A stretch of 64,000 bases of DNA from Promethearchaeota archaeon (GCA_016839705.1 JAEOTR010000057.1:62601-126600); one strand, 5' to 3'. Shown: positions 13,378 to 22,919, numbered from the stretch's first letter. Notes: generated by a model from the letters alone, not told the origin. Numbers and translations are program-made.

Positions 13378-15051
13378 TTGTTTGATAAAGATTATTTGGA
13401 AAAGGTCAAAGAAGAAAAAGAGAAATGGGAAAAGCTCTATGAAAGCCTGAAAGAACGTGATGTTAGATTTGTAACCGACTCTGAAATTCCAATTAAGAAA
13501 TTGTATACTCCATTGGATCTCAAAGAGAACGACTATCTGAGCAATATCAGCTTTCCAGGAACCCCTCCATATACAAGGGGAGTTTATCCTTCTATGTACC
13601 GGGGGAGATTGTGGACTATGAGATTATTTTCAGGTCATGGAACTCCTGAAGAAACTAATAAAAGATGGAAATTTCTCTATGAAAACGGGGAAACAGGATT
13701 TAGTGCGGCAGTTGATGCATTAACTTTTAATGGAATTGACCCTACTAATCCGGATGGTGCTCCCGAAGTTGGAACATCTGGTGTACCGTTGTATTGTATC
13801 GATAGTCTGTTTGCTTTAACTGAAGATATACCAATAGACAAAATCAGTGTAGCATTAGTCGTTGAGCCTTTTACATCTGCACCTGTATGTGCAATGTATT
13901 TTAATATGGCCAAAATGCGCGGATATGACATAAGTAAATTAATAGGTACAACTCAAAATGACATTTTAACAATGACCGTAGGCTATATTCCTTATAAAAA
14001 TTGTCCTCCTAATCACATTCTACGTTTAGCATGCGATTTCATTGAATGGACCGTACCGATGAAAAATGTTCCAAATTGGCATCCTATTAATTTTACTGGA
14101 TACAATTATCGAGAAGGTGGAATTGATGCTGTCCAAGAACTTGGATTCGTATTTGCAAGCGCTTGTTCCCATATTGACAATCTTATTGAACGGGGATGGA
14201 GGGCTGATGATTTTGTAGGGCGTTTAGCTTTTCATTTAGCAGCCCATAAAGATTTTTTTGAAGAAATCGCAAAATTTAGAGCAGCTAGGAGAATTTGGTA
14301 TAAGTTAATGAAAAAATATGAAGTTAAAGATCCAAGAAATTTTGGTTTTCGATTCCATGTTCAGACTGCGGGTTCCTCTTTGACAGCACAATTACCTAAA
14401 TTGAATATAGTAAGAACTGCAATCCAAGCATTAGAAGCAAATCTCGGTGGTTGTCAATCATTGCACACTAATTCTTATGATGAAGCAATTTGCTTACCAT
14501 CTGAGGAAGCTGCTTTAGTTGCCTTAAGAACTCAACAAATAATATCAGATGAAAGTCGGATTCATAATACGATAGATCCTCTCGCAGGCTCATACTTTAT
14601 TGAATGGCTAACTGATGAGATCGAGGAAAGGGTGTGGAAGTATATGGATAAAGTCCAACAGGTGGGGTCGATTGACAAAGCCCTTTCGTCTGGATTTTTA
14701 TATAAGGAAATGAGGGATGCCTTCCATAAGAGAAAAACGCGTCTTGAAAGTGGTGATGAAATTATGCTCGGTGTCAATAAATATCCTGTTCCTTATGACG
14801 ATGTTACTGATGTATTTAGGACCAATAAGAAAGCAATTAACATTGAAGTGGACAGAATTAATAAGTTAAAAGCCAGAAGAGATAACGCAAAATTAGAAAA
14901 GATTTTAGATAAATTGCGGGATGTGTGCGAAAAAGAAGAAAATGTTATGCCTGTTATAATGGAAGCAACTAAAGAAGGGGCAACTGTGGGTGAAATCTGT
15001 GATATTTATAGAGAAATCTGGGGTATCTGGGAGCCTCCATTAGCAATTTAA
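13378..15051 (+). CDS. AdoCbl-dependent acyl-CoA mutase large (substrate-binding) subunit, MCM family, divergent active site
   Basis: PYTRGVYPSMY, QNDIL, FFEEIAKFRAARR, FHVQTAG, QSLHTNSYDEA, IDPLAGSY. Confidence 0.93.
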   Translation: MFDKDYLEKVKEEKEKWEKLYESLKERDVRFVTDSEIPIKKLYTPLDLKENDYLSNISFPGTPPYTRGVYPSMYRGRLWTMRLFSGHGTPEETNKRWKFLYENGETGFSAAVDALTFNGIDPTNPDGAPEVGTSGVPLYCIDSLFALTEDIPIDKISVALVVEPFTSAPVCAMYFNMAKMRGYDISKLIGTTQNDILTMTVGYIPYKNCPPNHILRLACDFIEWTVPMKNVPNWHPINFTGYNYREGGIDAVQELGFVFASACSHIDNLIERGWRADDFVGRLAFHLAAHKDFFEEIAKFRAARRIWYKLMKKYEVKDPRNFGFRFHVQTAGSSLTAQLPKLNIVRTAIQALEANLGGCQSLHTNSYDEAICLPSEEAALVALRTQQIISDESRIHNTIDPLAGSYFIEWLTDEIEERVWKYMDKVQQVGSIDKALSSGFLYKEMRDAFHKRKTRLESGDEIMLGVNKYPVPYDDVTDVFRTNKKAINIEVDRINKLKARRDNAKLEKILDKLRDVCEKEENVMPVIMEATKEGATVGEICDIYREIWGIWEPPLAI

Positions 15052-15069
15052 ATCTAAAGGTGATACCAT

Positions 15070-15468
15070 ATGGATGATAAGAAAATAAGAGTCTTGATGT
15101 CAAAACCGGGTATTGATGGACATTGGCGTGGTGGGATTGTTGTCTCAAGAGCAATTAGAGATGCTGGGATGGAGCTTATATTTGGTGGCTTTCAAAATGT
15201 TCAACAAATTGTTGAAGCAGCAATTCAAGAAGATGTTGATATTATTGGTTTAAGTATTCATTCAGGAGCACATTTTGCTTACACTCAAGAAATCATTGAC
15301 TTATTAAAAGAAAAAGGTGTTTTTGACGACATTATGATTCTAGTCGGAGGTGTTATTCCTGCCATAGACTTTCCAAAATTACGGGAAATGGGAGTAGCAA
15401 ATGTTTACGGTCCTGGAAGTCTTACAAAAGATATCATTGATTTTATTCAAAATAACGTCAAAAAATAA
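15070..15468 (+). CDS. Acyl-CoA mutase cobalamin-binding small subunit
   Basis: KPGIDGHWRG (DxHxxG), GLSIHSGAH, VGGVIP. Confidence 0.93.
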   Translation: MDDKKIRVLMSKPGIDGHWRGGIVVSRAIRDAGMELIFGGFQNVQQIVEAAIQEDVDIIGLSIHSGAHFAYTQEIIDLLKEKGVFDDIMILVGGVIPAIDFPKLREMGVANVYGPGSLTKDIIDFIQNNVKK

Positions 15469-15537
15469 AAAAACTATGCAATATTTTCTTTTTTAAATTA
15501 AAATATATAAGCTATTTTTTAATGGGGTTGCTATTTC

Positions 15538-16512
15538 TTGAAAAGGGACTACGACATTAATGATTTAATCACTAAATTTAAAAATAAGGATAAAATAGCC
15601 TTAGCAAGGTTAATCACAATCATAGAAAATGAACCAGATAAGGCTCATGAGATTTTCAGACATTTAGAAGATGTGAAAAATGATTCATACATAATAGGTA
15701 TTACGGGCTCTCCCGGTGTTGGTAAAAGTACTTTAACGGGTGAAATCTGTAAAAAACTCTTAGATGATGGAAAGAGGATCGGAATAATATGCGTAGATCC
15801 TACGAGCCCATTTAGTGGGGGAGCATTTTTGGGTGATAGGGTAAGGATGACTAATATTTCTTTACACCCAAATATGTTTTTGAGAAGCCTTGCATCAAGA
15901 GGATATAAAGGCGGAATTTCTAGAGCTGTCTTTGACATCAGTTTGTTATATGAAGCTTTTGGAATGGATATAATTATTATCGAAACTGTTGGTGTTGGCC
16001 AAGCTGAATTTGATATCTACAATTTAGTATATTCTGTTGTTGTGGTCCTAGTCCCTGGATACGGAGATGCAATTCAAATGCAAAAAGCAGGAATAATAGA
16101 AATTGGGGATATTTACGATGTAAACAAAAAAGATTTAGGTGGTGAAGACATTGCCGTTCAAATAGAAATGATGCTTGATGATTCCACTTTCCAGAGTGGA
16201 TGGAGACCACCTGTTTCTATGACTAATGCCATTTCCGGGGAAGGTGTGGATGATTTAGTGCAAAATATCATGGACCACAAGGAACATTTAGAATTATCTG
16301 AATCTATTAATGAAAAGAAAAAAAATAGGTTTAGGTATAAGATTAAGGAATTAGTGTATACAAAGATTGATAAAATCATCTCAGAAGGCTTTCTAAATGA
16401 AAACGAAATTAATGAGATTATAAATCATGCTCTAGATGATGGAAAGTTTAAAATTTATCGAACTATCCATAATAAATTCGAGGATGTAAATTTCGAAATT
16501 AATAAAAAATAA
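15538..16512 (+). CDS. meaB: MeaB/ArgK mutase-associated GTPase chaperone
   Basis: GSPGVGKST, VDPTSPFSGGAFLGDRVRM, ETVGVGQ, NKKD. Confidence 0.93.
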   Translation: MKRDYDINDLITKFKNKDKIALARLITIIENEPDKAHEIFRHLEDVKNDSYIIGITGSPGVGKSTLTGEICKKLLDDGKRIGIICVDPTSPFSGGAFLGDRVRMTNISLHPNMFLRSLASRGYKGGISRAVFDISLLYEAFGMDIIIIETVGVGQAEFDIYNLVYSVVVVLVPGYGDAIQMQKAGIIEIGDIYDVNKKDLGGEDIAVQIEMMLDDSTFQSGWRPPVSMTNAISGEGVDDLVQNIMDHKEHLELSESINEKKKNRFRYKIKELVYTKIDKIISEGFLNENEINEIINHALDDGKFKIYRTIHNKFEDVNFEINKK

Positions 16513-16620
16513 AAAAATAACTTTTTCATTTGAATTTCTATTTTATATTGATCAATGTTTAATATTCTTCATTATTTTCAAAAACAATAATTCAAATCAA
16601 ATTAAATTAGACTGTTAAAT

Positions 16621-17427
16621 ATGCCAATACTAGGAATAGATTATGAAAAATGTAATGACTGTCAAATTTGCTATAATGCATGCTATAGATATTTCAGACG
16701 TGATAAAGAATTAAATAAAATGGTATTTGAAGATCCTAATAATCTTTGTGATTCATGCGGGCGTTGCATAGCAAGGTGTAAATCGGATGCGATTTTGTAT
16801 GAAAACTTTGGGGAATTCTTAACTTTTGAAGAAGCTCAAAATCCTAGTACATTAATATCATACGATAATATGCATAAATTTATGAGTGCTAAGCGTTCAA
16901 TTAGGGGATTCAAAAAGAAAAAAGTTCCAAAAGCTGATTTAAAAAAAGTCTTGGACACTATGAAATATGCCCCTACAGGAGCTAACATCCGAACTTTAGA
17001 ATGTACTATAATTTCAGATAATGAAAAAATCAAAGAATTATCAGGAGTGGTTATGGACGCAATAATAGCTTCACGCCTTCCAAGGTATTATGAAAATTTC
17101 ATAAAGGCTAAGAAATATGGGATAGATACAATTTTTCATAATGCCCCTCATGTAATGATTATACACTCAGAAAATCCTGGAGATGCCATGAATTCTACAA
17201 TAGCCCTGACATATGGAATGCTATGTGCGCAAACTTTAGGACTGGGAAGTTGTTGGATTGGATTAGCTCATGGAGTTCTTTCATCGAGTAAAGAAATACA
17301 GGAGAAATATACTGGAATTCAAGGTATTGTATGGGGTGTAATAATTATCGGATATCCTACACAAATTTACTATCGAGTACCACCACGTCCAGACATAAAA
17401 ACTAAAGGATTAGAGGAACTAGAATAA
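16621..17427 (+). CDS. Nitroreductase family protein with N-terminal 4Fe-4S ferredoxin domain
   Basis: CNDCQICYNAC and CDSCGRCIARC; KRSIR, APTGAN, GLGSCWIG. Confidence 0.88.
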   Translation: MPILGIDYEKCNDCQICYNACYRYFRRDKELNKMVFEDPNNLCDSCGRCIARCKSDAILYENFGEFLTFEEAQNPSTLISYDNMHKFMSAKRSIRGFKKKKVPKADLKKVLDTMKYAPTGANIRTLECTIISDNEKIKELSGVVMDAIIASRLPRYYENFIKAKKYGIDTIFHNAPHVMIIHSENPGDAMNSTIALTYGMLCAQTLGLGSCWIGLAHGVLSSSKEIQEKYTGIQGIVWGVIIIGYPTQIYYRVPPRPDIKTKGLEELE

Positions 17428-17460
17428 ATTGTAAATTAATTTATCGAATATTGAAAAAAT

Positions 17461-17829
17461 ATGGTAGAATTCTGTCCTGAATGTGGGAATTTGTTAAGGA
17501 GAAAAACCTGCAGATGTGGGTATGGAGAACCAGAAGGAATCACTAAAGATGCATCTTACAATCATATGAAAAAAATCTGGGATCCCCCCTCTCCTAATAA
17601 CATATACTGCAAAATAACAGCTACTCCTTATGATAAACTTAAATCTATGCTAAATAAAGGGAATATTCCCGAAAAATTAAAGGAAGTAAGAGAGAATATA
17701 AAATCTCATCTTTATTCGTGTAGTAACTGTCTTTATTATCATGGGGATATATTTCTTTGTAAATTTAAAAATAAATACTTAACAAAAGATTCCATCTGTA
17801 GGAGTTTTGAACCCTATTCAGATAACTAA
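17461..17829 (+). CDS. Cys-rich zinc-ribbon protein
   Basis: N-terminal FCPECGNLL...CRCG; second Cys cluster CSNC...C...C at the C-terminus. Confidence 0.7.
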   Translation: MVEFCPECGNLLRRKTCRCGYGEPEGITKDASYNHMKKIWDPPSPNNIYCKITATPYDKLKSMLNKGNIPEKLKEVRENIKSHLYSCSNCLYYHGDIFLCKFKNKYLTKDSICRSFEPYSDN

Positions 17830-17838
17830 TTTCTGAGC

Positions 17839-17887
17839 CTTTAAGCAACTTGTATTGTTCGAAAAGTGGACTTTAAACCTTTAAATA
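17839..17887 (+). promoter_or_regulatory. Conserved operator plus BRE/TATA promoter, copy 1
   Basis: ctttaagcaacttgtattgttcgaaaagtggactttaaacctttaaata; near-identical to 18495-18544 and 20250-20299. Confidence 0.8.
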
Positions 17888-17931
17888 TAATAAAAATAAT
17901 TAAAAACAAAATTGTGAAGGAAAATCATATT

Positions 17932-18444
17932 ATGAAAGAAATTAAAAAATTAGTGTGGATTTTTCCACTTATTGGTGGAATTATAACACTTATCGCTTTA
18001 TTAACTCCCGCCGCATATTTTATTTATCGATCACCATCCTTTACTAGTGATTTTTATCTTTGGATGTGTAATTTATATTTTTCTCATAGGTTTGAATTTG
18101 GTATTTATACCACGATAATTGAATTTGATACCCAATTAATAGGTCTTATCCCCTCGATTATATTATCGCTAATAATTACAATTTTAAGTATATTAACTAT
18201 TACAACTGCTATTAAATGTAGAAAAGGAACTATGAATATCAATATTAGCTGGATGGTCTCGGCTGTGGTAATAATAATTGCAACAATAATATGGATGATA
18301 ATGATGGAAGTTTCTAGGAGAGTGCTATATGGTCATCAATTTTGGGGGATTTTTAATCCTGGTTTCGGTGTTATTGTCCCATTTATAGGTGCCGGTTTAG
18401 AAATAGTAGGATATATTTTTTTGAAGAAAACATTAAGAAATTGA
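17932..18444 (+). CDS. 4-TM membrane protein of unknown function (start moved from GTG 17866 to ATG 17932)
   Basis: Four hydrophobic helices. The annotated GTG lies inside the promoter motif, so the downstream ATG is more plausible. Confidence 0.75.
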   Translation: MKEIKKLVWIFPLIGGIITLIALLTPAAYFIYRSPSFTSDFYLWMCNLYFSHRFEFGIYTTIIEFDTQLIGLIPSIILSLIITILSILTITTAIKCRKGTMNINISWMVSAVVIIIATIIWMIMMEVSRRVLYGHQFWGIFNPGFGVIVPFIGAGLEIVGYIFLKKTLRN

Positions 18445-18494
18445 TAAGCTATCCAATCGTTAATCCTGCAGATTCTATATATAGATGTTTTTAA

Positions 18495-18544
18495 CTTTAA
18501 GTATCTTGTTTTGTTCGAAAAGTGCACCTTAAACCTTTATATAC
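18495..18544 (+). promoter_or_regulatory. Conserved operator plus BRE/TATA promoter, copy 2
   Basis: ctttaagtatcttgttttgttcgaaaagtgcaccttaaacctttatata, ending 57 bp before ATG 18601. Confidence 0.8.
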
Positions 18545-18600
18545 TTTCTTTATAGGTTTGATATAATTTTAAACAAAATAAAAAATTTCAATTAATTCTA

Positions 18601-20208
18601 ATGAAAATCTTTAAAGAAAGAGTTGGAAAATATTACATTCTTTTAACTGTAATTTTTAACCTATTATTCCTAACCGGATTGCTTAATTCAGCAAGTTCAG
18701 TAAAAGAGAATGCCAAACCATATCTTTATTGTTCATATTTCGGAGGATCAGAAAAAGATATTATTACAGGAATGGCTATTGATTCAACGGGTAATGTTGT
18801 TGTAGTGGGTGGAACATTTTCAACAGACCTTGTCGTTCTTAATGGGTTCCAAGAAGAATATGGAGGGGGTTCAAGTGATAATAATCATGAGAACGGAGGA
18901 GATGGATTTGTAGCAAAAATCTCTCCTTCTGGAGACTTAATTTGGGGGACTTACTTGGGTGGAAATGATTTGGATTGTTGTAATGATGTGATAGTTGATC
19001 ATGAGGATAATATCTTAGTTATAGGAAAAACAACATCTGAAAATTTTCCCACAATTGGTAATGCCCTAAAAAAAGAGTTCAGTGGTACCACTGATGGATT
19101 CATTTCAAAATTTTTGTCAAACGGATCCTTAATTTATTCAACATACATCGGGGAAGATGGTGCTGAAAATTTAGTAGATCTCATTGAAGATAAATTTGGT
19201 AATATTATGATAGTTGGGGCGTCTGGATCCTCGAATTTCACCACCACTTTAAATGCTCCTCAGCCAATATTTGGGGGTGTTTTTGATACAATTGTTCTTA
19301 ATTTGTCCCATAACTGTTCGGATATCCTTTTTAGCACATTTTTAGGTGGCAACCGAGGAGATGGTGGTTATAACATTGCATTAGATTATGAAAATAACAT
19401 AATAATAACAGGATATACGTTGAGTGATGATTTTCCCTTAAAAAATCCCTTACAAGATGAAATTTTGGGTGATCAGAGAGAAATCTTTGTCACAAAATTC
19501 AATTCTACCGGTCAAATTATATTTTCAACATATCTCGGGGGAAGCTCATTTGAGGATTCCTTTGGATTGACAGTTAATGCATCAGGAAATATTATTATTT
19601 CCGGGAGAACTGCATCTGATGATTATCCCACGGAAAAAGGTTTACAAAATAATTATTCAGGTGGAGTAGATGCAATTATTTCGATTATAAGTCCTGATGG
19701 TCAGACCCTCGAATATTCAACTTTTCTCGGAGGAAATGGTTGGGACACATTGCATCAAGTAGCTGTTAACTCTTCGAATTCTTTATATGCATGTGGAATC
19801 GGAAGTGGGTTTCCTACAAAAAAGCCATTTCAAAATGGTGTAGCAGGTGGATCAGATTTAGTAATAATGCAATTTTCTCCTGGAAATCATGTGGAACTTT
19901 GCACTTATTTCGGAGGAACTGGGGAAGAATGTCCATATTCTATGAATTTTTATAATACGTCCTTATATATCGCAGGACTTACAAATTCAGAATCACTATT
20001 TATCAGCAAAGACGCCTTTCAAGACAACTATGGAGGAAATACTGACGGATTCATTCTAATAATTGACATCCCCTCTTATTTAGCTTTGGTAGACTCCTTT
20101 CAAATCTTCAATCTAGGTTTAATTCTCACTATAATGATCCCAATTTCTCTGATTGCAGTGACAGGTACTGTTTTTCTTATCCGCAAATATAGAAGGGGAA
20201 TTAGTTAA
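18601..20208 (+). CDS. Secreted, membrane-anchored SBBP-repeat beta-propeller protein
   Basis: Signal peptide; repeated (W/Y/F)STYLGG..D.......D..GN...G.T.S.DFP units; C-terminal TM helix plus RKYRR. Confidence 0.85.
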   Translation: MKIFKERVGKYYILLTVIFNLLFLTGLLNSASSVKENAKPYLYCSYFGGSEKDIITGMAIDSTGNVVVVGGTFSTDLVVLNGFQEEYGGGSSDNNHENGGDGFVAKISPSGDLIWGTYLGGNDLDCCNDVIVDHEDNILVIGKTTSENFPTIGNALKKEFSGTTDGFISKFLSNGSLIYSTYIGEDGAENLVDLIEDKFGNIMIVGASGSSNFTTTLNAPQPIFGGVFDTIVLNLSHNCSDILFSTFLGGNRGDGGYNIALDYENNIIITGYTLSDDFPLKNPLQDEILGDQREIFVTKFNSTGQIIFSTYLGGSSFEDSFGLTVNASGNIIISGRTASDDYPTEKGLQNNYSGGVDAIISIISPDGQTLEYSTFLGGNGWDTLHQVAVNSSNSLYACGIGSGFPTKKPFQNGVAGGSDLVIMQFSPGNHVELCTYFGGTGEECPYSMNFYNTSLYIAGLTNSESLFISKDAFQDNYGGNTDGFILIIDIPSYLALVDSFQIFNLGLILTIMIPISLIAVTGTVFLIRKYRRGIS

Positions 20209-20249
20209 AATTTGGCAGTTCATAAATTTTATTTCTAAAATTTTTTTTT

Positions 20250-20299
20250 CTTTAGCATTACTTAAATTGTACGAAAACTGCACCTTAAAGCTTTATATA
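20250..20299 (+). promoter_or_regulatory. Conserved operator plus BRE/TATA promoter, copy 3
   Basis: ctttagcattacttaaattgtacgaaaactgcaccttaaagctttatata, ending 54 bp before ATG 20353. Confidence 0.78.
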
Positions 20300-20352
20300 C
20301 AGTGTTGTTTCTCATTATATAACTATAATCAAAAGTTAAAGTGTGTAAGTGA

Positions 20353-20949
20353 ATGAACCTAAAAAGAGTTAATATTAAAAATAATATTATTTCATTTTCT
20401 ACCAGTATTTCTTCTTTTTTAATTCCGATTTTCCAATACGTACCATGTACTGGTGTATGGTTTGGGATAATGAGTATACCATTGATATATTATCTGGGTT
20501 TCTTTTTTCAAAATCCTGGAATTGCCTCTTCAGATATTCAATTCTTAATCAGAAACAATGGATTCTACGTTGTACTATTTGGTTTCATTATTTACATCTA
20601 TTCTTTAATATATCAATTAACTCATAGAAAGCAATTGATGCAGACTGGACCCTATAAATATGTGAGACATCCTCAATATATTGCTTTTATTATCATGACT
20701 TTAGGATTAACTATAATTACTTTTGACACAAGTCCAATTTTCAATTTTAATATTGGTAATCTTAACGGATTTACCATTATATTAATTATTTGGATTGGTG
20801 AAGTGATTGCGTATATTGTTTTAGGAAAGATTGAAGAAATTGCCTTAAAAGCTAAATATGGTGATCAATTCTTAAAGTATGCAAGCGAAGTACCATTTAT
20901 GGTCCCATTCTTAAAATTAAAAAGGAATGAAATTAAGAAAAATAATTGA
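20353..20949 (+). CDS. Isoprenylcysteine carboxyl methyltransferase / PEMT family membrane methyltransferase
   Basis: TGPYKYVRHPQY and EEIALKAKYGDQFLKYASEVP motifs; multiple TM helices. Confidence 0.82.
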   Translation: MNLKRVNIKNNIISFSTSISSFLIPIFQYVPCTGVWFGIMSIPLIYYLGFFFQNPGIASSDIQFLIRNNGFYVVLFGFIIYIYSLIYQLTHRKQLMQTGPYKYVRHPQYIAFIIMTLGLTIITFDTSPIFNFNIGNLNGFTIILIIWIGEVIAYIVLGKIEEIALKAKYGDQFLKYASEVPFMVPFLKLKRNEIKKNN

Positions 20950-20979
20950 TAACAACATATTGAAAAATTTAATAATAAT

Positions 20980-21684
20980 ATGAAAACTAAAAATGCTAAA
21001 ATTTTACATTTTTTTAGATTTACACTAATTTTATTATCTCTTGCTTTTCTATCAATTGTCTTATATTTAGTTTTCTCTTATGAAATTCCGTTTTTTGATC
21101 CTACAATAAATACCATTAAATTTGTCATAATTGTTCTTTTAATACCACTATTAGCATTTATAACTATTTTAGCTGCTCTTACAATCAAAGAATACAAGGC
21201 CTATTTTGTGAGGAGAACTCATATTAAACAGGGAAGATCCTATCTGACCCTTACTGATATTTTTGAAAATGAAAACCGTATAAATCTCATAAATCAAATC
21301 CTAAGGAATCCCGGTATTCATCATAACGAATTACTACGAAAATGTGAATTACAAAAAGGACAATTACAATATCATTTAGATATCTTATTAAAGTACAACA
21401 TTATAAAAAAGGAAAAATATGGGCAATTTACAATTTATTTTCCGATTACAACATCATTTGATGCAGAAGAGTATTTAGAAAATCTTATCGCAAAATCAAA
21501 AACCACTTCAGAAATCTTGAATATTATTAAAAAAACTCCCGGAATTAATTCTTCTGAAATATCACGAATTCTGAATATTTCTCGTAATACTGTGAAATAT
21601 CACATTGATAAATTATCACAAGAAAAGCTAGTAAAATTAACTAAAAAAGGTCGCACAATAGAATTATATCCTATTCTTAATTAA
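20980..21684 (+). CDS. Membrane-anchored transcriptional regulator with two winged-HTH domains (COG3398-like)
   Basis: Two N-terminal TM helices, then NPGIHHNEL...GQLQYHLDIL and TPGINSSEISRILNISRNTVKYHIDKL. Confidence 0.85.
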   Translation: MKTKNAKILHFFRFTLILLSLAFLSIVLYLVFSYEIPFFDPTINTIKFVIIVLLIPLLAFITILAALTIKEYKAYFVRRTHIKQGRSYLTLTDIFENENRINLINQILRNPGIHHNELLRKCELQKGQLQYHLDILLKYNIIKKEKYGQFTIYFPITTSFDAEEYLENLIAKSKTTSEILNIIKKTPGINSSEISRILNISRNTVKYHIDKLSQEKLVKLTKKGRTIELYPILN

Positions 21685-21791
21685 TTAGATATTCTTATTC
21701 TATTTTAATATCTAGAAAGATCTATAATAGACTTATCATTAATTTACTTACTTGATTCAATTTAGGATATAGCTCAAGGTTTAAAGAAATT

Positions 21792-22919
21792 ATGAATGCA
21801 CATGAAAGAGTAATAAAAACGTTAAATCATGAAGAACCTGATCGAGTACCTCTTTTCTGTCAAGCAATAATGCCTGGATTCGAAAGAAATCTGATTAAAT
21901 ATTGGGGTAATGAATATAAGCATGATGAGAGATATGTTTTATATTTTAGTGATTATAACCTTCATAGAAAATTAGGTTTTGATCTTTGCTGGGGATTTGG
22001 TGTAGTTCCCGCCAAATTACCACGAAACTTTTTAAAAGATAACCCAACTCCACAATTAGATGATCCAAATAAAATTATTGATATTGATGGTAGGGTTTAC
22101 TTAAGAAATCCTGAATTCAATGTACCTTGGTATTATGAAAACTATATTACAACAGAAGAAATGGCAGATTATTTTTATGACAGATACTATTCAATAGAAT
22201 GGGAAGAAAACTCTAATTTTATACCAAAGCTCAATAAGACTTTAAGCAAATATCCCCTAGATGAGATTGTTCCTTGTACTCACATAAACAGTATTTTAGA
22301 ACCTATTTGGGAAGGTTTAGGATTATCTTTATTTACGAAGTTATTAAGAAAAAAAAGATCTAAACTCAAAAAATACATTGATTTAAGAACAAAAATCTCA
22401 GTAAAGGGAGCAAAAGTGTTAGCAGAAACTGATTTTGACGTTTTCTTTCTATGTGATGACACAGCGTTTAAAAATAGAACAATGATTAATCCTAAAGACC
22501 ATCGAGAACTAATTATTCCTGCTTATAAGAAGATTCTTCATGAGTTAAATAAAGCAGGAAAATATGCGATTTTTCATTCAGATGGTTATACTGAACCCTA
22601 CTTTGATGGGTTGATTGAGGCAGGATTTAAAGGGGTTGAATCTTTAGAACCAATGGCGGGCATGAATTTAAAACATTTAAAGGACACATATGGGGATAAA
22701 CTCTGTTTAATTGGGAATATAGATGTTTCAAAACTTTTACCTTTCGGCACAACAGATGAAGTTACACAATCAGTAAAAAAATGTATAAAAGATGCCGGTG
22801 AAGGTGGAGGATATATGCTGAGCGCCTGTACAGATATAACGAATGCATGTAAACTTGAAAATATTTTTACTATGATTTCTGCCACAAAGAAATATGGGAA
22901 ATATCCACTAAAATTATGA
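21792..22919 (+). CDS. Uroporphyrinogen decarboxylase / MtaA-CmuA (MT2) methyltransferase family protein
   Basis: MNAHERV..LNHEEPDRVP, CDD, FHSDG, LIGNID, GGGYMLS. Confidence 0.82.
   Translation: MNAHERVIKTLNHEEPDRVPLFCQAIMPGFERNLIKYWGNEYKHDERYVLYFSDYNLHRKLGFDLCWGFGVVPAKLPRNFLKDNPTPQLDDPNKIIDIDGRVYLRNPEFNVPWYYENYITTEEMADYFYDRYYSIEWEENSNFIPKLNKTLSKYPLDEIVPCTHINSILEPIWEGLGLSLFTKLLRKKRSKLKKYIDLRTKISVKGAKVLAETDFDVFFLCDDTAFKNRTMINPKDHRELIIPAYKKILHELNKAGKYAIFHSDGYTEPYFDGLIEAGFKGVESLEPMAGMNLKHLKDTYGDKLCLIGNIDVSKLLPFGTTDEVTQSVKKCIKDAGEGGGYMLSACTDITNACKLENIFTMISATKKYGKYPLKL

Follow-up and report, generated by a model that had tools for sequence, protein, structure and literature searches.

In an uncultured archaeon, three consecutive promoters carry one conserved element, and this element is tied, here and in related genomes, to the gene of a putative membrane-anchored transcription regulator that we call REG. 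It is likely, in our judgement, that the cluster forms an autoregulated and mostly local envelope regulon, in which the transmembrane (TM) regulator would dock on about 19-21 bp abutting BRE and TATA and would probably activate, with an ICMT-like enzyme as a possible input partner in the membrane. The evidence is comparative genomics of related genomes, which are not independent samples. We found no published description of the box-REG system in the literature, and the cluster provides a candidate gene switch, open to experiment, in an archaeon related to eukaryotes. An initial annotation had placed the DNA among the Asgard archaea, and the genome indeed belongs to the Promethearchaeota. The window is the whole stretch of DNA that was analysed, 64,000 nucleotides long, and positions are counted from its first letter. 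The features are as follows.

17855..17887, + strand: box 1 with TATA-like octamer (17880-17887), promoter of the 4-TM gene, exact 33-mer match
17932..18444, + strand: target 1, small 4-TM membrane protein of 170 aa with four hydrophobic segments
18511..18543, + strand: box 2 with TATA (18536-18543), promoter of the SBBP gene, exact 33-mer match
18601..20208, + strand: target 2, SBBP beta-propeller surface protein (PF06739 SBBP, 1.5e-14)
20267..20299, + strand: box 3 with TATA (20292-20299), promoter of the ICMT-like/regulator operon, exact 33-mer match
20353..20949, + strand: ICMT/PEMT-superfamily membrane methyltransferase-like protein of 198 aa, first gene of the box-3 operon
20980..21684, + strand: putative transmembrane transcription regulator (REG) of 234 aa, 2-TM hairpin, wHTH1 at about 91-152 and wHTH2 at about 162-231

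The degenerate 33-mer has three exact sites with 0 mismatches, all on the + strand and at the positions listed, and it was matched in none of 100 shuffles. The initial annotation had reported these three copies, although the end of the second lies at 18543 and not at 18544. When all 97 contigs of the genome (3.36 Mb) were searched with a 31-nt form of the motif, allowing up to 3 mismatches, just the three sites of the cluster came up, and exact matches to the 15-nt core are confined to the same sites. The nearest near-matches, C82:46088 and C53:43298, both lie within ORFs and are chance hits. A motif common genome-wide, which had been named as the finding that would speak against a regulon, is thus not what the genome scan returned; it gave 3 sites, all of them promoters of the cluster. 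A dispersed repeat or MITE end was rejected on the same grounds, 3 copies in 3.36 Mb at the promoters of one cluster. Rfam covariance models gave no match at E<=1 in 17400-21800. All three boxes are intergenic and co-oriented with the downstream gene, 75-88 bp 5' of its start codon. The distance from core start to ATG is 75 nt for box 1, where an SD-like AAGGA stands about 11-15 nt before the ATG, and 88 nt for box 2, of which the orthologous site and gene are found in G027 and G028 (L034, L064). Box 3 is the copy kept in all relatives, and its distance of 84 nt is the modal value among 65 sites.

The consensus of the box reads T-GTTC-g-A-a-AAGTGCAC-CTT. Judged by its sequence, the element is a composite promoter, in which about 19-21 specific bp directly precede an A-rich BRE-like stretch and a TATA box, at a spacing that does not vary. 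A logo of the 65 sites has 28 consecutive positions at 1-2.7 bits with flanks near 0. The conserved block passes, with no gap, into the BRE-like A-tract and then the TATA, which is near consensus at 65/65 sites. The fixed spacing just upstream of BRE/TATA that had been noted for the three copies is invariant in this logo. Two further descriptions given at that time hold in part: the pseudo-palindromic core exists as 3+3 bases, but conservation is continuous and asymmetric over about 31 nt, and the upstream CTTTAAG...CTT similarity is seen in this genome and a few close relatives, while beyond -10 the information over the 65 sites is about 0. The flanks of TATA-like octamers genome-wide show no more than a weak enrichment of A at -3 and -4. 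A CTTAAA that stands 2 nt ahead of a TATA was counted 6 times genome-wide; boxes 2 and 3 account for two of these, and box 1 has TTTAAA instead. The box is distinct from generic promoter sequence. A strong-looking TATA with an A-tract is compatible with a repressor and an activator alike.

The tie between box and REG is seen throughout the related genomes. The box lies upstream of the orthologous ICMT-like/REG pair at every related locus inspected, in more than 50 Promethearchaeota genomes from at least 6 genera, so that co-occurrence with TM-wHTH-wHTH genes, suggested as a check at the outset, is well documented. All orthologous loci with upstream DNA (40/40) have the box, about 84 bp before ICMT or, where ICMT-REG closes a longer operon, before the opening gene of that operon. 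When 32 orthologous upstream regions were aligned, anchored at the ATG and not selected for the motif, the box was the sole block at 80-99% column identity. Genus-wide, about 70 of 103 box matches are followed within 10 kb by a REG gene on the same strand; a reversed-pattern control gave about 10 matches in total. The linkage was also seen in the genera g20, g19, g18, g21 and g23. Among the g20 genomes, 23 of 32 with a REG orthologue have the box, versus 1 of 10 without, and in the apparent g20 exceptions G075 and G127 the contigs end inside ICMT just past the box. Where REG is absent the box is absent too, in 9/10 REG-less g20 genomes and in G004 and G068. In G005, where the ICMT-REG pair is deleted, the leftover box has decayed and is altered at an otherwise invariant G. 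In G019, which is 92% complete, a radical-SAM module is preceded by a perfect box, and no REG orthologue was found. Related genomes carry 1-4 box copies each, with the exception of g18. There, REG-type proteins are expanded to a maximum of 9 copies (G100), box variants with GTACAC or CTTC...GTGTAC occur at 12 sites beside REG-type genes, and the recognition helix of wHTH2 differs. Variation of the box within one genome is as large as between genomes, and therefore residue-to-base co-variation would be visible only between genera, where it is confounded by phylogeny. In distant lineages the TATA-proximal CTTAAA drifts while AAGTGCACC is retained, which places the specific contacts upstream of the BRE.

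REG combines predicted TM helices with DNA-binding domains in one protein. Both domains score above the Pfam gathering thresholds and assign it to the ArsR/MarR-type wHTH proteins (HTH_24, HTH_20): PF24266 (HVO_0163-type N-terminal HTH) matches residues 98-162 with 1.2e-20 and 73.8 bits (cut-off 31), and PF13412 (HTH_24) matches residues 174-219 with 7.3e-16 and 57.9 bits (cut-off 21.9). Hydrophobic segments span residues 14-32 and 49-67, within AF2 helices 2-35 and 41-86, and the AF2 model (pLDDT 76) consists of helices and two winged helices. The predicted layout is a cytoplasmic N-terminus, a 2-TM hairpin with an outside loop of about 12 residues, a short basic juxtamembrane helix and cytoplasmic wHTHs. 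The two winged helices, both nearly invariant, differ from each other, and a linker of some 20 residues separates them from the TM anchor. Neither recognition helix varies among 26 orthologues, which matches the near-invariant box. The TM part is variable, a pattern that speaks against a specific ligand site within the membrane. In relatives from another genus the two TM helices are separated by a large extracytoplasmic domain, in place of an ICMT-like partner. The gap between ICMT and REG measures 30 bp and leaves no room for a separate REG promoter. The domain searches agree with the gene content given in the initial annotation, namely a 4-TM protein, an SBBP protein, an ICMT/PEMT-like protein and, after this gap, a protein with 2 TM helices and two wHTHs. 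Two winged helices per chain are also found in PF0095 of Pyrococcus furiosus (PDB 2quf), ScpB and RPC34 (Foldseek E 8e-5 to 3e-4), where TM-scores of 0.23-0.28 against tandem winged-helix proteins are low because the relative domain orientation is uncertain. Unlike REG, these three lack a membrane anchor, and two of them, ScpB and RPC34, do not regulate in a sequence-specific manner.

The genes behind the boxes encode predominantly membrane and surface proteins. For the 4-TM gene the start is most likely ATG 17932, with GTG 17914 as the alternative; ATG 17866 was rejected since it lies 5' of the TATA. Its product has no match in Pfam or NCBIfam, and other genomes likewise have orthologues downstream of the box (L052, L064 and L115 among them). 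The SBBP protein has an N-terminal signal/TM segment and a C-terminal TM anchor (hydrophobic segments 13-31 and 507-525). Across genomes nearly all box targets have signal peptides or TM segments, and they include LVIVD, SBBP, PKD and CARDB surface proteins; by this measure the membrane or surface nature proposed for the three original targets extends overwhelmingly to the whole set. The target set differs from species to species. Additional box copies precede variable neighbour genes, nearly all of which encode signal-peptide or multi-TM proteins, and in at least 10 genomes a distal box heads a module of radical-SAM/SPASM protein, small TM peptide and methyltransferase-TPR protein.

From its predicted architecture, the system would be of the transmembrane transcription regulator (TTR) kind, with a logic that resembles those of ArnR and TFB-RF1. 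TTRs were defined by Demey et al. 2023, with ToxR, CadC and TcpP as examples and about 4 reported per archaeal genome (PMC10269533). Like REG as predicted, they have TM segments and a DNA-binding domain in one polypeptide, and they are presumed to act from the membrane (PMC10269533). However, in ToxR and CadC an OmpR-type wHTH at the N-terminus is followed by one TM segment and a periplasmic sensor, while REG has an N-terminal 2-TM hairpin with almost no external loop and two C-terminal ArsR/MarR-like wHTHs, has an ICMT-superfamily enzyme as its sometimes fused partner, and shares no sequence relationship with them. Membership in the ToxR/CadC family, characterised by the N-terminal OmpR/PhoB-type wHTH, was rejected, since REG gives no Trans_reg_C match and has two TM helices, a loop of about 12 residues and C-terminal wHTHs. 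ArnR and ArnR1 of Sulfolobus acidocaldarius are membrane-bound one-component regulators that activate surface-structure genes (archaellum, pili), and their boxes are inverted repeats at -43 to -84, upstream of BRE/TATA, of which two are needed (PMC6396743). The likeness lies in an archaeal membrane-bound regulator, a box upstream of BRE/TATA and cell-surface genes. In contrast to REG, ArnR begins with an HTH, continues with HAMP-like and sensor domains and ends in two TM helices; REG has the reversed domain order, no HAMP, two wHTHs and a single asymmetric box abutting the BRE. We therefore rejected an identity with ArnR/ArnR1: the domain order is reversed, a HAMP/sensor domain was not found and the box is asymmetric. 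TFB-RF1 (PF1088) of Pyrococcus furiosus binds directly upstream of the BRE and activates by recruiting TFB; its regulon consists of its own operon, which includes a co-transcribed gene of unknown function, and one more (PMC5937170). The present cluster would share with it the very small regulon that includes the own operon, the partner gene in this operon, the site directly upstream of the BRE and activation through TFB. However, TFB-RF1 is soluble, its target promoters have weak BREs, and homology to REG is not demonstrated.

In the reading that we prefer, REG would bind the asymmetric box from its place in the membrane, with successive major grooves read by its two wHTH domains, and it would control its own operon, composed of the ICMT-like gene and REG, together with the adjacent envelope genes. 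As the third unit is the ICMT-REG operon, autoregulation is the natural reading. Given binding, we lean slightly towards activation through recruitment of TFB/TBP, by analogy with TFB-RF1 or Ptr2, since the site lies immediately upstream of BRE/TATA. Mostly local targets would fit a non-diffusing factor, and would also fit loci that stay at the membrane because their products are inserted during translation.

The sign of regulation might also be the opposite, although we find this doubtful: REG could be an autorepressor that blocks TFB at the BRE until an envelope or membrane signal, possibly via the ICMT-like partner, releases it. The gapless run of the conserved block into A-tract and TATA would suit such a block, the near-consensus TATA at all 65 sites points in the same direction because strong core promoters usually need repression more than activation, and the nearest matches in sequence and fold, ArsR/SmtB and MarR-type wHTH proteins, are mostly repressors. 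However, characterised archaeal sites upstream of BRE/TATA usually activate (TFB-RF1, PMC5937170; ArnR, PMC6396743), the known membrane-bound one-component factors ArnR and ToxR/CadC are activators (PMC6396743, PMC10269533), and the CTTAAA drift in distant lineages puts the contacts upstream of the BRE. It seems quite unlikely that another factor, a soluble regulator whose gene lies elsewhere or a specialised TFB/TBP paralogue, reads the box and that the ICMT-REG operon is merely one of its targets. The connection of REG to the DNA is drawn from sequence comparison, the block covers the BRE position contacted by TFB, some boxes are distal and far from REG, and G019 has a perfect box but no detectable REG orthologue. 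Against this stand the shared locus of box and REG orthologue in the many genomes above, the missing or decayed box in REG-less genomes, and the box copy number and variant in g18, which change along with the REG family. A dedicated general-factor paralogue would be an odd investment for 3 sites.

Two further explanations are very improbable. The repeats might be recombination points of a cassette array whose genes are swapped between species, without regulatory role. The genes between the conserved flanks and ICMT do vary (none, LVIVD, f14, SBBP, 4-TM or the radical-SAM module) with a box before each, and G027 lacks exactly the 4-TM unit found here. However, the 40 mapped loci share no conserved integrase or recombinase, the box is kept before the invariant ICMT-REG operon where nothing is swapped, and single distal copies head the radical-SAM module. 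The fixed-spacing TATA, the 75-88 nt to the ATG and the SD-like sequences in the predicted leader are promoter anatomy, and homologous recombination between promoter copies would make swapping a by-product of regulation. An integron-like array was rejected as well, since no recombinase family recurs in these loci and the element, with its TATA, precedes the genes, in contrast to the attC-like imperfect inverted repeats at the 3' ends of integron cassettes. Similarly, we attach hardly any weight to the idea that REG is freed from the membrane by regulated intramembrane proteolysis, in the manner of SREBP, ATF6 or RsgI, and then acts as a soluble factor. This draws on the architecture alone, a TM anchor, a linker and DNA-binding domains. 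However, in the 40 loci a protease gene is conserved neither in nor beside the cluster, the variable TM helices show no conserved cleavage-like motif, ArnR and bacterial TTRs act from the membrane (PMC6396743, PMC10269533), release is unnecessary where there is no nuclear envelope, and local clustering of targets fits a non-diffusing factor. Thus, from the overall reading of the initial annotation the promoter-linked, cluster-specific element tied to a TM-wHTH-wHTH gene is retained, while release of the SREBP/ATF6 type is left without support.

The preferred reading, an envelope regulon under membrane-anchored REG, assigns a role to the ICMT-like protein. This multi-TM protein belongs to the ICMT/PEMT superfamily by Pfam gathering scores (PF04140, 31.7 bits, cut-off 24; PF04191, 29.6 bits, cut-off 25), and the fused form matches too. 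It shares with this superfamily the size of about 200 aa, the multi-TM build, an invariant RHPxY-type block and a C-terminal acidic/aromatic block; the blocks GPY..RHPQY and E..Y..L..IE..LK.KYG are invariant in 29 orthologues. An isoprenylcysteine O-methyltransferase proper was rejected (NCBIfam equivalog NF040696, 28.1 bits versus a cut-off of 160). The AF2 model is poor (pLDDT 62) and 5v7p matches at just E=3, a profile search of PDB sequences gave no match, and the encoded proteins inspected have no CaaX-type C-terminal motif. The gene is nearly always adjacent to the regulator gene, with predicted co-transcription, and is fused to it in three cases (G017, G002/P0001, P0029). We propose that the enzyme may provide the input, as a 'trigger enzyme' or co-sensor that acts in or at the membrane. 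It is not obligatory, because in G036 and G023 (L068, L069) the box stands directly before REG with no ICMT gene between, and g18 forms also lack it. CadC is controlled by the membrane partner LysP, and the logic proposed for the ICMT-like protein and REG is alike. A more specific version, which we regard as unlikely, makes the enzyme the sensory half of a two-part, sometimes fused, membrane switch, in which REG would receive the enzyme's substrate occupancy or methyl-transfer state as a signal within the membrane and would then activate the surface-protein genes. The substrate would be a lipid, or a lipid-modified or prenylated envelope protein, and the surface-protein genes would be held at the membrane. 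If true, the archaeal lineage closest to eukaryotes would possess a transmembrane transcription switch that is gated by an enzyme and works without a kinase, with ICMT-type activity coupled to gene control. The ICMT-like gene as constant and sometimes fused partner of REG had been overlooked in the initial annotation, as had the species-variable targets and the distal radical-SAM module.

The initial annotation had described three copies of one promoter module ahead of three genes of the window, and this observation holds. Its degenerate 33-mer matches at three sites, all on the forward strand, where chance predicts none, and the gene content of the cluster is as it had stated:

17855-17887, forward strand: first box, ahead of the 4-TM gene
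From 17932, forward strand: 4-TM protein, best start ATG 17932
18511-18543, forward strand: second box, ahead of the SBBP gene
18601-20208: SBBP propeller, signal-bearing and anchored at the C-terminus
20267-20299, forward strand: third box, ahead of the ICMT-REG operon
20353-20949: ICMT/PEMT-like membrane protein (ICMT)
20980-21684: REG, 30 bp further on, 234 aa, two TM and two winged helices

The start of the 4-TM gene is placed at ATG 17932 because the GTG at 17866 falls 5' of the TATA element. When the three upstream regions are aligned, they share one unbroken identical block from the core to a TATA-like octamer. We searched the whole assembly (3.36 Mb, 97 contigs, 31% G+C), of which the window is C46:62601-126600, with a 31-nt version of the box, allowing up to three mismatches, and recovered the three cluster sites only; the exact 15-nt core is confined to the same places. 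The nearest near-matches outside the cluster, C82:46088 and C53:43298, lie inside ORFs and were dismissed as extra sites. With three sites in 3.36 Mb and intragenic near-matches, these counts rule out a common dispersed repeat or MITE, the outcome that the initial annotation had named as fatal to its own reading. The locus gave no match to a known RNA family of the Rfam type. In relatives the box also precedes a radical-SAM gene; an orthologue of this gene was not found in the studied genome, and hence its regulon appears to consist of just three promoters.

The box is widely conserved. Of 36 genomes sampled from the same genus, 22 contain the exact 15-nt core, with next to nothing for a reversed-pattern control; flanks diverge among these genomes and the block runs on into CTTAAA, two bases and TATA. 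Most genomes of the genus encode a REG orthologue. For 40 of these orthologues we took about 11 kb of surrounding sequence and located the ORF families and box matches in it. Every mapped locus with upstream DNA has a box about 84 bp ahead of the ICMT-like gene, followed by REG, and where ICMT-REG closes a longer operon the box precedes that operon's first gene. A 21-nt pattern with at most two mismatches finds the box in 48 of 54 genomes of the genus (103 matches versus about 10 for the reversed control), and by our count against REG coordinates about 70 of the 103 have a REG gene on the same strand no more than 10 kb downstream. Family-wide, the box is also found in genera g20 (24 of 42 genomes), g19 and g18, again adjoining REG orthologues. 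Lineages missed by this search carry a degenerate box at the canonical place before ICMT-REG, in which AAGTGCACC is best preserved and the CTTAAA part drifts. Within g20, 23 of the 32 genomes that have a REG orthologue carry the box, versus 1 of the 10 without, counts that come from related genomes and are not an independent-sample statistic. In two apparent exceptions of this genus (G075 and G127) the contigs stop inside ICMT right after the box. The genome G005, which is 100% complete, lacks the ICMT-REG pair at the syntenic place. Its remaining box (L126:3001-3528) has a G-to-A change at an otherwise invariant position and now precedes a gene for a 117-aa 4-TM protein. It looks as if, in G005, the regulator had been lost by a natural deletion and its site had then decayed.

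Which part of the block is specific and which is generic promoter? The logo built from 65 sites in 41 genomes has the consensus T-GTTC-g-A-a-AAGTGCAC-CTTAAA-cC-TTTAtAAa, with 1-2.7 bits over 28 consecutive positions, approximately zero in the flanks, and a modal distance of 84 nt from core start to ATG. These sites had been picked by motif, and hence we made a control alignment of 32 ICMT upstream regions anchored at the start codon alone; it shows the same block, with 80-99% column identity versus an AT-rich background. TATA-like octamers upstream of genes show genome-wide a weak A preference at -3 and -4 only. AAA-N2-TATA occurs 364 times in the genome versus six occurrences of CTTAAA-N2-TATA; boxes 2 and 3 are two of the six, and box 1 has TTTAAA at this place. 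A generic BRE/TATA was therefore rejected as an explanation of the block, and for the same reasons the element is read as about 19-21 specific bp followed by a generic BRE-like A-tract and TATA. Only 12 tRNAs were found, too few for their promoters to serve as a core-promoter reference. The predicted leaders would be about 20-35 nt long, with transcription predicted to start about 24-27 nt past the TATA centre, near 17910, 18565 and 20320, and would contain the SD-like sequences found before the 4-TM and ICMT genes.

In an alignment of 26 REG orthologues the TM helices vary, the basic stretch next to the membrane is conserved, and the recognition helices of both winged helices are invariant. 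The AF2 model (pLDDT 76) places helices at 2-35 and 41-86 and the two winged helices at 91-152 (wHTH1) and 162-231 (wHTH2), with a disordered linker between these two, and its Foldseek matches are tandem winged-helix proteins (ScpB, RPC34, PF0095) and ArsR/SmtB repressors. Since the hairpin has basic residues at both ends and an inter-TM loop of only about 12 residues, the DNA-binding part must be cytoplasmic and near the membrane, and an external sensor is essentially absent. In g18 the tandem wHTH module is found at the C-terminus of proteins of 445-770 aa, which have a TM helix at the N-terminus, then 200-550 residues that presumably lie outside the cytoplasm, and a second TM helix before the module. 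One g18 genome (G100; L132-L147, L138-L140) has up to nine such genes and twelve variant-type boxes, which adjoin those genes and also precede PKD, CARDB/trypsin-like and PGAP1-like surface proteins. The wHTH2 recognition helix of g18 departs from the otherwise invariant one, and this co-variation with the box, at the level of the whole genus, points weakly in the same direction as a reading of the box by REG. In genus g1 the boxes vary as much within one genome as between genomes, and residue-to-base co-variation is thus uninformative there. A paralogue of 419 aa with the order TM, about 190 aa, TM, wHTH, wHTH (L152:2724-3980) is encoded in essentially every genome of the order searched, including the studied one (C82:76723-77979). 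Its gene has no box upstream.

The ICMT-like protein scores above the Pfam cut-offs for both ICMT and PEMT and below the NCBIfam cut-off for an orthologue of characterised ICMT. Its sequence conservation is strong and takes in an RHPxY-type block and, at the C-terminus, an acidic/aromatic block. A profile made from the ICMT alignment matched no PDB sequence, and the AF2 model (pLDDT 62) is of low confidence for Foldseek comparison. Head-to-tail fusions of ICMT and REG are found in G017, G002 and a more distant database protein, P0029, from a genome outside the 151 searched. In many genomes the two genes share one frame with a single stop codon between them, so that fusion needs only stop loss; an open frame of 470 aa in g19, considered as a further fusion, turned out to be two such in-frame genes. 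The partner is not obligatory, since in two genomes REG follows the box with no ICMT gene between them, and the g18 forms lack ICMT. Double-length ICMT-family proteins of 414-458 aa without an HTH domain were also observed (L170:4470-5714 in G106, P0038, P0041 and P0046) and may be tandem ICMT domains or another fusion; the one in G106 sits between a degenerate box and the regulator.

Extra boxes, all of them on the same strand, stand ahead of variable genes that are inserted directly upstream. The products of these genes are an LVIVD propeller (about 360 aa), an anchored protein (about 520 aa), SBBP, the 4-TM protein and a small TM protein related to it; in two genomes (L036, L037) the insert is a radical-SAM/SPASM, small peptide and methyltransferase-TPR module inside the cluster. 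Away from REG, boxes recur before the radical-SAM module in at least 10 genomes (L109:3001-5912, also L110, L113, L116, L118, L123-L125, L127 and L111). Its three genes encode a radical-SAM/SPASM enzyme of 374 aa, a single-TM protein of 86 aa and a methyltransferase-TPR protein of about 445 aa. In NCBIfam the enzyme comes nearest to peptide maturases, with every score under the cut-off, and the module may serve to modify a peptide under control of the same regulator. At other distal sites the targets are a 4-TM protein, a 6-TM protein, a 4-TM protein of 117 aa, a 146-aa protein that bears a signal and lies beside an M1 peptidase, and a gene pair including an HGD-D-type protein.

The regulon and the link between box and regulator, as proposed in the initial annotation, are supported by comparative evidence. 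The best-supported reading of these sequences is a transmembrane transcription regulator: REG, anchored in the membrane, would bind the box from there and would autoregulate the ICMT-REG operon together with a few, mostly local envelope genes. The motif scan and co-occurrence check that the annotation had suggested show the box tracking the TM-wHTH-wHTH gene. G019 departs from this pattern: a perfect box stands ahead of its radical-SAM module, and in its 92%-complete assembly an orthologue of REG was not found. That another factor reads the box is less likely, as is action of REG after proteolytic release. A purely recombinational box is likewise less likely. The transmembrane transcription regulators (TTRs) form a known, widespread class with about four members per archaeal genome (PMC10269533). 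Among archaea the nearest parallel is ArnR/ArnR1, which are membrane-bound, activate surface-structure genes and have their boxes upstream of BRE/TATA (PMC6396743); their architecture is reversed relative to REG and there is no homology. TFB-RF1 (PMC5937170) resembles the box system in site position and in its tiny autoregulated regulon, and because of this likeness, and by comparison with the ArnR/ArnR1 activators, we prefer activation as the putative direction of control. The core promoter looks strong, which would suit repression by REG, the less probable alternative.

To our knowledge very little has been learned of how Asgard archaea regulate their genes, and we know of no cultured organism with this system. 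Our literature search found no paper on HVO_0163-type regulators, Asgard ICMT-like proteins or this circuit. The candidate circuit is compact and falsifiable, with a box of about 20 bp on a core promoter, a regulator with two conserved recognition helices and few envelope targets, and it is kept in more than 50 genomes of at least six genera. The ICMT-like enzyme is a candidate for its membrane input. If confirmed, it would be the first Promethearchaeota regulator-operator pair that we are aware of and an example of membrane-based transcription control coupled to an enzyme partner.

Several further observations concern the surroundings of the boxes. The closest relative, G027, lacks exactly the 4-TM unit of box plus gene (L034:5570-7340 compared with window 17855-20299), and from one species to another the genes that separate the conserved flank from ICMT are swapped unit by unit. 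This is consistent with promoter-copy recombination that shuffles surface-protein genes, and such turnover behind one box bears on cell-surface variation in these archaea. At many loci an alpha/beta-hydrolase gene of family f12 (L048:4695-5522 and equivalents) is divergent from the box, and the conserved AT-rich stretch of about 35 nt between them may be its own promoter. The left flank of the cluster, conserved in many genomes, consists of the B12 mutase large subunit, the B12-binding subunit, MeaB and a ferredoxin-nitroreductase (window 13378-17427). Between this flank and the first box, ending shortly before the latter, lies the gene of a Cys-rich 122-aa protein with no family match (window 17461-17829); it has the same position in at least 12 related genomes, is without a box of its own, and may be a member of the upstream mutase/MeaB/nitroreductase group.
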